Assembly (NCBI GenBank): GCA_963676915.2
Contig: CAXXVK010000043.1
Location: forward strand, 236,568 to 300,567
Direction: 5' to 3'
Length of the DNA stretch: 64,000 nucleotides
DNA from: Myxococcota bacterium
GTDB lineage: Bacteria; Myxococcota_A; SURF-8; G963663525
The translations under genes were made by a program, and so were the position numbers. The notes beneath the pieces were generated by a model. The model did no database searches. It had not been told where the DNA came from and saw only the letters and a list, made by a program, of their open reading frames with translations. Shown piece by piece: positions 11,285-12,506 of this stretch (the first letter of the stretch is position 1; each line of letters opens with the position of its first letter).

Positions 11285-11348
11285 GATAAAGAAAAAACTC
11301 CTGAAATATCAATCGGTTCAATGGAAAGGGTAGCGACTGTGATTGAAG

Positions 11349-12281
11349 TCAAGCAAATTTTGGTTTCCACTCCTCCCTATTTTTAAGCATAGTATTCATG
11401 ATAACGAGGAGTTTCCGCATAGATGCGATGACGGTGGTCATTTTGGGTTTACCCATAGTGACGTGCCTTTGATTGAAGGCTCGAATCACAGGGTTGTGCT
11501 GGATGGCGGACAAAGTGGGCATGTACAGTTGGGTGCGCACTTGCCTTCTTCCACCACCGGTCATGCGTTTGCCTTTGAACGTGCCGCTATCTCGATTGAA
11601 CGGAGCGACGCCGACGAGAGCGGCGATTTGGCGCCGGTTGTATTCACCCAGTTCGGGCAAATCAACGATCAGGCAGTGAGCCGTGAGCGAACCGATACCG
11701 GGAACGGTCATGAGGCATCGAACCTTTTCGGAGAGCGATTCGTTGCGTTGAACGATGCTCCGTATCGCCTCCTCGATGCTTTCGACGTTCTTGTCCAGTG
11801 CTTTGATGATCGTTTTCAGACTGCGTGCGACAAGCTTGTCGTCGGCGTGTTCCATACGGTTTTTCTCTGCTGTTCGCATATCGATCAGTTGCCTTCGGCG
11901 AGCCGCAAGGGCTTTGAGTTTCAGACTCTCGGGAGTGATTTTTCGCATGTGACGGGGCTGGACCAGTGCGGCGTAGCGAGCGATGAGGTTGGCGTCGATG
12001 CGATCGGTTTTCGCTAAAAGTCCAAGAGACTGAGCGAAGGCGCGAATACGTCGTGGATTGACGACGGCCACATTGAAATTCCGTTTTTGCAGGAACTGGG
12101 CCAGGCGGTTTTCGTAGCCACCGGTGGATTCCATGGCGACCAGATCTGGCGCGGCGTTGCTGATTTTACGAAACGCTTTTTTCATTCCTGCTGGGGTGTA
12201 CTCAAAAGTCTCGACGGTTCGGGACGAACCTACGGCCAGATCGAACGAAAGCTTGCTGATGTCGATTCCGACGGTTTCCAT
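11349..12281 (-). CDS. IS110-family DEDD recombinase/transposase (310 aa)
   Basis: GIDISK, MESTGGY and KTDRIDA (RuvC-like DEDD), plus VPGIG and RDSG (Tnp20 catalytic Ser region). Confidence 0.95.
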
Positions 12282-12490
12282 CTCGTTCACCCTTCCTTGC
12301 TCATGCGGGCTCATCGGTGTACAATGGCCCTAGCGACTGTTCGGGCTTCCCGGACAAAACGGGCGGCGGATCCAGCTACACACGGGTTGAAAAACCCAAG
12401 GTCGGGACGATCTCGCCGCCCGATGCTCCCTGGGCGGCCGCCCAGGGAGCATCACCATTTTACCACAACAAACACCTGAAAACTGACACA
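12282..12490 (-). ncRNA. Putative bridge RNA with target-binding and donor-binding loops (boundaries approximate)
   Basis: Stem CGGGCGGCG...CGCCGCCCG encloses TCCCGACCT (12399-12407) and TGTGTAG (12376-12382). A second stem encloses ACAGTCGCT (12332-12340) and GAGCAAG (12296-12302). Layout parallels the IS621 bridge RNA as I recall it. Confidence 0.8.
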
Positions 12491-12506
12491 ATAAAGATCA
12501 TACAAG

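Follow-up and report, generated by a model that had tools for sequence, protein, structure and literature searches.

Does the non-coding left end of an IS110-family insertion sequence from a Myxococcota bacterium encode a bridge RNA, and can the sites used by the element be read from the loops of this RNA? The question is raised by a locus on the minus strand of a 64,000-nucleotide (nt) stretch of contig CAXXVK010000043.1 (positions 236,568 to 300,567), which is called the window below and is numbered from its first letter. The preliminary description of this locus had proposed an IS110 element with the bridge-RNA architecture established for IS621 and with loops that predict both donor and target. 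IS621 of Escherichia coli is described as a bridge recombinase system (PMC11208160; PMC11208158). Judging from the sequence, it is very probable that the locus carries an intact insertion sequence of the IS110 group that has moved recently and works in the way described for IS621. It is a new member of the IS110-group bridge-recombinase elements and not a new kind of system. The element and its gene are positioned as follows.

11332-12506, minus strand: whole IS110-group element of 1,173 bp, given here as 1,175 bp because the CT core is counted at both ends
12505-12506, minus strand: left copy of the CT core, from flank reading, copy ends and the empty-site joint
11332-11333, minus strand: right copy of the CT core, from flank reading, copy ends and the empty-site joint
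11349-12281, minus strand: recombinase gene (310 amino acids plus stop); the protein comprises a RuvC-like DEDD domain, a coiled coil and a Tnp domain that carries the catalytic Ser

Read on the minus strand, the element starts at 12506 with CT-TGTATGAT and ends with ACAGTCG-CT at 11332, 17 nt past the stop codon of the recombinase gene. Its ends (CTTGTATGA... and ...ACAGTCGCT) are not inverted repeats, and there is no target duplication longer than the core. The non-coding left end (leader) comprises 225 nt (12282-12506) up to the ATG at 12281; the preliminary description had recognized this region but put its length at about 210 nt. The boundaries were set independently by six full copies of the element in the window's genome and by an empty-site contig. 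The first and last bases are common to all six copies, and CT is found at both junctions in each of them. The same genome holds one copy at a contig end and one left-end remnant of 56-81 nt. Over 1,175 bp the full copies differ at four substitution sites, all within the gene, and by two indels; their left ends are 100% identical. The full reading frame with all catalytic residues is retained in four copies. For the empty-site check public contigs were placed on the locus. In a contig from run X2, with flanks ~95% identical, 11331 is joined straight to 12505, and the joint skips 1,173 bp with a 2-nt ambiguity, so that the CT core was present once before insertion and is present twice after it. 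This contig is an unoccupied insertion site in a related strain. A synteny search for an empty site yielded none, the two flanking genes being not adjacent in the same-genus genome.

The assignment to the IS110 bridge recombinases made in the preliminary description is borne out by Pfam, by a PDB sequence search, by the fold and by the boundaries given above. The N-terminal RuvC-like DEDD domain matches PF01548 (E 1.3e-25, 90.5 bits versus a cut-off of 29) and the C-terminal Tnp domain matches PF02371 (E 3e-18). The PDB search gave full-length matches to the recombinases of ISCro4 (7e-36) and IS621 (4e-30). The AlphaFold model (predicted local distance difference test score 83.1, predicted template-modelling (TM) score 0.73) compares with chains of 9t56, 8wt6 and 8wt9 at TM scores of 0.83-0.85 (0.84 to IS621 and ISCro4). 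Residues D7, E51, D93, D96 and S232 align with D11, E60, D102, D105 and S241, which are given as the catalytic residues of IS621 (PMC11208158). The first four fall in the aligned motifs GID, E(A/S)TG and KTDxxDA. All five are invariant among 26 aligned homologues, and so is the conserved Ser-Gly pair S232-G233. The ATG of the 310-residue form at 12281 has a position shared with relatives; a longer frame of 321 codons from 12314 was rejected as the start because homologues begin where the 310-residue form begins. The nearest protein in a large collection is 95% identical and the next ones are 61-63% identical.

The predicted RNA occupies most of the leader and is built of three parts, which were delimited in the minimum free energy (MFE) fold and by comparison with relatives.

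12279-12453, minus strand: predicted bridge RNA body, consisting of the 5' hairpin and of the loops for target binding and donor binding, up to the start codon
12422-12453, minus strand: 5' hairpin of 14 perfect base pairs with a 4-nt loop, from the MFE fold
12361-12421, minus strand: target-binding loop, a 13-bp stem around an internal loop plus a small upper hairpin (helices 1 and 2)
12290-12345, minus strand: donor-binding loop, a lower stem CCC/GGG, an internal loop and an upper hairpin (helices 3 and 4)

The MFE of the left end is -100.7 kcal/mol (z -4.6), and none of 200 shuffled sequences was equally stable. For comparison 80 loci with recombinases 39-54% identical to the present one were gathered. 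A plain MAFFT alignment was made of the eight leaders closest to that of the window. In it the stems are conserved and the loop segments are variable, and RNAalifold applied to this alignment recovers the target-loop and donor-loop helices with eight compensated pairs. As no curated Rfam family matched on the strand of the RNA, our own covariance model (R1) was built from these eight leaders. It gave 81 matches, 77 of them (the window's own included) at most 60 nt from a recombinase start codon; the other four lie elsewhere and, having no adjoining start codon, were dropped. The match in the window (12279-12425, 140 bits) is the sole one within its 64 kb, and in the relatives the matches extend up to the recombinase start codon. 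The covariance-model search suggested in the preliminary description thus does find the RNA before recombinase genes when it is made with R1.

In the R1 alignment 95.7% of the cells hold standard pairs; when the partners are shuffled the figure is 69.1%, and when they are slid it is 34-48%. Of the 28 base pairs 24 have changes on both sides. Within the target loop this applies to 15 of 17 pairs (94.9% and 96.4% of cells paired in helices 1 and 2), and within the donor loop to 9 of 11 (99.1% and 95.1% in helices 3 and 4). A stable 5' hairpin of unrelated sequence is located at the same place before the target module in all 14 closest relatives (-15.7 to -36.5 kcal/mol), and a hairpin of -12 kcal/mol or lower was found in 42 of 63 loci. 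The two stem-enclosed loops of the IS621 type that had been proposed from the single sequence are recovered by RNAalifold and by the covariance-model alignment; these results and the covarying guides treated below agree with an IS110-group bridge-recombinase element.

The segments of the loops that can be read as guides are listed next.

12399-12407, minus strand: left target guide UCCCGAC plus core CU, with 8 of 9 positions equal to left flank and core at five on-target copies
12376-12382, minus strand: right target guide GUAG, pairing with CT-AC; the preceding UGU is a possible 3-nt extension
12332-12340, minus strand: left donor guide ACAGUCG plus core CU, identical at 9 of 9 positions to the right end 11332-11340
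12296-12304, minus strand: right donor guide AUGAGCAAG, with CAAG on CT-TG, a G-T pair, a 2-nt bulge and AU on AT
12374-12375, minus strand: putative target-loop handshake dinucleotide CU, from the sequence and the rule of PMC11208158
12294-12295, minus strand: putative donor-loop handshake dinucleotide GA, from the sequence and the same rule

All four strings quoted in the preliminary description (TCCCGAC-CT, TGTGTAG, ACAGTCG-CT and GAGCAAG) are present on the minus strand where it had placed them. TCCCGAC-CT matches the left flank ACCCGAC (12507-12513) followed by CT (12505-12506), as had been claimed, and the identity of ACAGTCG-CT with the right end is equally exact. The complement of TGTGTAG, CT-ACACA, has to be compared with the right flank CT-ACCCT (11327-11333), and that of GAGCAAG (12296-12302), CT-TGCTC, with the left end CT-TGTAT (12500-12506). 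The partial complementarity of the latter pair is real, but the contiguous 7-mer is not the best reading: a discontiguous guide, in which the 9 RNA nt AUGAGCAAG are set against the 7 DNA bases CTTGTAT, appears to fit better. A discontiguous right donor guide is also reported for IS621 (PMC11208160). Taken together, the loops predict the target xCCCGAC-CT-AC(aca) and the donor ACAGTCG-CT-TGTAT, and this is what the copies of the element show.

The relatives allow the guides to be compared with the DNA next to them. For these tests the 77 guide sets were reduced to 66 by merging duplicates, and loci without enough flank were excluded, leaving 57 loci for the left target guide, 62 for the left donor guide and 35 for the right target guide. 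The left donor 8-mer is found exactly past the stop codon in 36 of 62 loci, in 28 of them at +8, and foreign left donor guides differing at two or more positions gave one exact match in 2,218 trials. Variants of this guide (ACAGTCG, ACAGCCG, ACAGTTG, ACAGCTG and others) covary with the right ends. The right target test was limited to the 35 loci where the donor-guide match fixes the right end; there the reverse complement of a locus's own guide matches on average 4.23 of 5 non-core flank bases, versus 1.30 for the guides of other loci, and 19 of the 35 are perfect. The upstream DNA contains the locus's own left target 9-mer, with one mismatch or none, in 20 of 57 loci, versus 42 of 2,926 foreign-guide trials. 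Covariation of the right donor guide is hardly readable, since most loci have the same left end, CTTGTAT. Agreement is trivial in 13 of 20 loci; in one relative it is informative, the RNA having CUAG and the left end CTAG.

The target in the window and in its genome is formed by the following sites.

12507-12513, minus strand: left target half-site ACCCGAC, 3' arm of a degenerate hairpin resembling a repetitive extragenic palindrome (REP), at 12507-12529
11327-11331, minus strand: right target half-site ACCCT, from flank reading and copy comparison
12658-12684, plus strand: unoccupied copy of the target, REP-like hairpin 12658-12680 followed by CT and AC, 150 bp from the element

The element inserts at the 3' edge of REP-like hairpins, whose usual form is GTCGGGCAAGAAATTTGCCCGAC with CTAC after it. 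Comparison of boundaries and targets among other copies had been named beforehand as able to refute the proposal, and it did not do so. Besides the identical boundaries of the six copies it gave left flanks ending in CCCGAC in five and in ACGGAC in one, and AC after the core in all seven readable right flanks. The genome is rich in such sites. A strict hairpin pattern (GTCGGG, a loop of 6-16 nt, CCCGAC) has 340 matches over both strands, 118 of which are followed by CTAC, and the 10-mer CCCGACCTAC of the hairpin edge occurs 133 times versus about 11 times expected from the base composition.

Covariation of the left target guide with the sites is seen most clearly in elements of two genomes of the same order (G003 and G005). 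The element of G003 has the guide UCCCGAC, and all eight of its copies stand after CCCGAC, with AC past the core in seven of them. The sister element of G005 has the guide UCCCAUC, and all eight of its copies stand after a different hairpin, GATGGGCAACAAGTTGCCCATC (CCCATC). The two sister elements constitute a natural specificity swap. The preliminary description had considered that the specificity of the present element may be new. It is not unique: a 54%-identical element in another genome shares both the left target guide and the hairpin used as site. The abundance of the two hairpin types was counted in four genomes.

G000 (the window's genome): 149 CCCGAC-type and 5 CCCATC-type hairpins
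G003: 22 CCCGAC-type and 0 CCCATC-type hairpins
G005: 9 CCCGAC-type and 22 CCCATC-type hairpins
G009 (guide also UCCCAUC): 12 CCCGAC-type and 52 CCCATC-type hairpins

A control pattern had 0-4 matches per strand in every genome. The hairpin family matching the guide is the commoner one in each host. The GTCGGG...CCCGAC hairpins of the window's genome are often paired and linked by AATGCCAAGGT, and this family is also present in other genomes of the order beside the second family, GATGGG...CCCATC.

By analogy with IS621, the following course of events is proposed for the element. Excision would give a circle whose joined right and left ends form a TTGACT-17-TATGAT promoter. From this junction promoter a bridge RNA of about 175-205 nt would be transcribed off the left end, to be bound by a recombinase tetramer. 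At the 3' edge of a REP-like hairpin of the host the target loop would pair with xCCCGAC-CT of the bottom strand and CT-AC of the top strand, while the donor loop would pair with ACAGTCG-CT and CT-TGTAT at the circle junction. Strand exchange would take place at the CT core and would be aided by one handshake base per loop. According to the non-cognate rule given for handshake base pairs (PMC11208158), the C after GUAG could pair with donor G7 and not with target C7, and the G after CAAG could pair with target C7 and not with donor G7. The circle would finally be inserted without target duplication beyond the core.

The two halves of this predicted sigma-70-type promoter are located at opposite ends of the integrated element.

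11347-11352, minus strand: TTGACT, -35 half of the circle-junction promoter, overlapping the stop codon (computed junction)
12497-12502, minus strand: TATGAT, -10 half of the circle-junction promoter (computed junction)

Only the junction of the two ends brings TTGACT and TATGAT together at a spacing of 17 nt; after integration, the -35 slot holds poor hexamers in all six copies (GGCAAA, TCGGGT, GGCTAA twice, GGATCA and GGCAAG). Such a junction promoter would tie the expression of both RNA and recombinase to excision. For IS621 a promoter is reported to arise when the ends are joined in the circle (PMC11208160), and the RNA of integrated IS621 is reported to be weakly expressed (PMC13626964). 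The 3' strand of the donor loop, GCAAGGAAGGG, which contains the right donor guide, the handshake base and the lower stem, doubles as the Shine-Dalgarno region (12279-12300, minus strand): the Shine-Dalgarno-like GGAAGGG stands 8-14 nt before the ATG, and the strand is invariant in the eight closest relatives. It is a tentative and rather doubtful idea, suggested by this overlap, that bridge RNA and recombinase translation start form one physical unit in which translation is shut off when the donor loop folds or the recombinase binds to it. If true, the element would possess a built-in negative feedback, each transcript choosing between the roles of mRNA and guide RNA.

Several observations weigh against an RNA-guided element working in this way. 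A look-up of sequencing runs containing the stretch listed no RNA run. None of the six sites matches the left target guide at its position 1 (U), T stands at this position in one of the 133 free sites, and of the UGU extension of the right target guide one base of three is matched at the window copy. In the left target test, in which a fixed search window was used and the 9-mer was taken from alignment columns, 37 of 57 loci have two or more mismatches. The pair counts were obtained on an alignment fitted to the model and are thus biased towards structure; RNAalifold on the plain alignment is the independent check. No family of Rfam 15 matched the bridge RNA strand (minus) in the window, and no bridge RNA family was seen among the Rfam matches for the window and its relatives. 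The frame is broken near codons 235 and 242 in two of the six copies (L003 on C72 and L006 on C22) by an insertion of 1 nt or 2 nt located directly past the catalytic Ser codon; these may be real pseudogenes or assembly errors. The copy L005 is off target, its site being AACGGAC-CT-AC with three left-half mismatches to the guide and the right half CT-ACA. It resembles the half-match insertions reported in bioRxiv 10.64898/2026.08.31.748434. Since the target is a hairpin, recognition of the DNA hairpin structure by the recombinase may also share in specificity. Taken to its end, this would mean that the recombinase chooses its target mainly by the REP-like DNA hairpin, the RNA loops being of minor importance and the leader being chiefly a translational control region. 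All on-target sites are indeed the 3' arm of a hairpin, the target stem-loop of ISPpu10 is reported to add specificity (bioRxiv 10.64898/2026.03.19.712850), and the invariant GGAAGGG of the donor loop would suit a control region. Such a predominance of the hairpin is nevertheless improbable, for the change of the left guide from GA to AU is accompanied by the same two changes in the sites (8 of 8 versus 8 of 8 copies), the right target guide predicts flanks that lie outside any hairpin in the relatives, and the site of L005 itself is not in a hairpin.

The broken frames of the two copies, together with the negative look-up for RNA runs, raise another explanation, namely an inactive relic: the copies would stem from old duplications, and the RNA-like matches would be what is left of a system no longer active. 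This is less probable still. Six copies with so few differences and with identical left ends do not look old, four of them keep the complete frame together with every catalytic residue, and a closely related strain has no insertion at the locus. Least credible of all is chance similarity between loops and flanks in a structured GC-rich leader. In its favour, each match by itself is a short one of 7-10 nt, and at the window copy two of the four are incomplete. However, the longest word shared by the leader and the DNA past the stop codon is 10 nt versus a shuffled mean of 6.7, and the longest one shared with the upstream DNA is also 10 nt versus a shuffled mean of 7.6. Both word matches recur at the same positions in relatives, and the matches covary in dozens of them. 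Chance was accordingly tested and rejected by the shuffles, by the guide tests in relatives and by the sister-element swap. RNA-guided insertion of the IS621 type is thus retained as the explanation of the locus.

Comparison with IS621 places the element among known systems. A DNA search of E. coli genomes for IS621 gave no match, and the comparison of the RNAs rests on the text of the papers. In IS621 the left guides are described as top-strand sequence of 7 nt plus core, and the right guides as complementary to the top strand over the core and at least 2 nt; its wild-type target is given as ATCAGGC-CT-AC (PMC11208160). The two elements have in common the domain order, the catalytic residues and the fold of the recombinase, the encoding of the RNA in the left end with the order 5' hairpin, target loop and donor loop, the CT core, a left target guide of 7+2 nt and the 4-nt right target guide GUAG, the right target half CT-AC being identical in both. 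Further common traits are a discontiguous right donor guide, a promoter (here predicted) rebuilt at the circle junction, insertion into REP-type repeats and, immediately 5' of the right target guide, a U-rich stretch that may extend it, and the putative handshake bases would fit the same non-cognate rule. In contrast, the recombinases are 26-29% identical in structural alignment, with 310 residues here and 328 in the deposited IS621 chain, the left target half is CCCGAC here and TCAGGC in IS621, and the donor ends differ. The right end is here only 17 nt past the stop codon, which is why the -35 box overlaps this codon. The host is not an enterobacterium, and the present element is known from sequence alone.

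The best match among solved structures is ISCro4 (PDB 9t56, E 7e-36, TM 0.84-0.85), although its recombinase is 27-29% identical to the present one; the title of the entry names the ISCro4 recombinase with target-loop and donor-loop RNA and both DNAs. ISPpu10 of Pseudomonas putida is reported to insert into one conserved intergenic repeat whose 5' part is a stem-loop (bioRxiv 10.64898/2026.03.19.712850). The left target half of the present element is likewise the 3' arm of a hairpin, and by this analogy the hairpin may play a part here as well. Elements of the IS1111 group share the recombinase family with the present element. In the IS110 group the guide RNA is in the left end, upstream of the gene, while in the IS1111 group it is downstream of the gene. 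Here there are 225 nt before the start codon and just 17 nt after the stop codon, so that no right-end RNA is possible and the element belongs to the IS110 group. The extended-data legends of PMC11208160 support this definition of the two groups.

Guides of thousands of IS110-family orthologues have already been analysed (PMC11208160), and the present findings leave the known mechanism unchanged. They add one well-documented natural bridge recombinase with a short enzyme (310 residues) and a very compact element (1,173 bp), whose natural target is known and has 133 free copies in its own genome. Sister guides that differ by two bases, with sites differing accordingly, make a ready-made natural specificity swap, and in this bacterial order the guide tracks the hairpin repeat family common in the host.

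The sole Rfam match at the locus is sX15 (RF02234, a small RNA of Xanthomonadaceae), which is located on the strand opposite to the bridge RNA (12285-12431, plus strand) and scores 30.2 bits versus a gathering score of 55. In a gammaproteobacterial relative (L055, 1337-1488, minus strand) sX15 likewise lies opposite the bridge RNA strand with 51 bits versus 55. The plasmid-borne RNAs sX15 and asX7 are reported to be complementary to each other, with 10 homologues known from Stenotrophomonas maltophilia (PMC3300014). This suggests that sX15 and asX7 are the two strands of an IS110 left end.

An internal promoter was considered just before the 5' hairpin, where TGGTAAAAT at 12457-12465 is similar to an extended -10 box; it is not claimed. 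The box is absent from the promoter-scan listing and its 3' end is just 3 nt from the hairpin. A box at this place (at least 5 of 6 positions) was found in one of 41 relatives with a stable hairpin versus 7 of 164 control windows, in a test which missed the window's own box. A word of the type TGTTGTAAT(GG) stands directly 5' of the bridge RNA hairpin in the window (12457-12470) and in four relatives (L023, L027, L034 and L035). As a -10 box this word is poor, having no A at position 2.

Of the left end, the remnant in the window's genome (L008, G000:C60:183797-183877) keeps about the first 58 nt, with 89-95% identity and a mutated core. It follows a REP-like hairpin and breaks off shortly before the point where the bridge RNA hairpin would start; an open frame beginning with ATG lies ~25 nt downstream. 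It retains the TGGTAAAAT box, which might serve as a promoter of the adjoining open frame. A contig of run X1 joins 11348 to 12450, and this junction may be a related short derivative.

Next to the element in the window there is a strong hairpin resembling an intrinsic terminator (12691-12721, minus strand; 13 bp followed by a T run). It is placed between the empty target site and a gene of 388 amino acids (12744-13910, minus strand), for which there is no Pfam match. In one relative (L018) two Acido-Lenti-1 RNA matches, 769-813 and 927-971 on opposite strands, flank the element with 38.3 and 38.2 bits versus a gathering score of 37.

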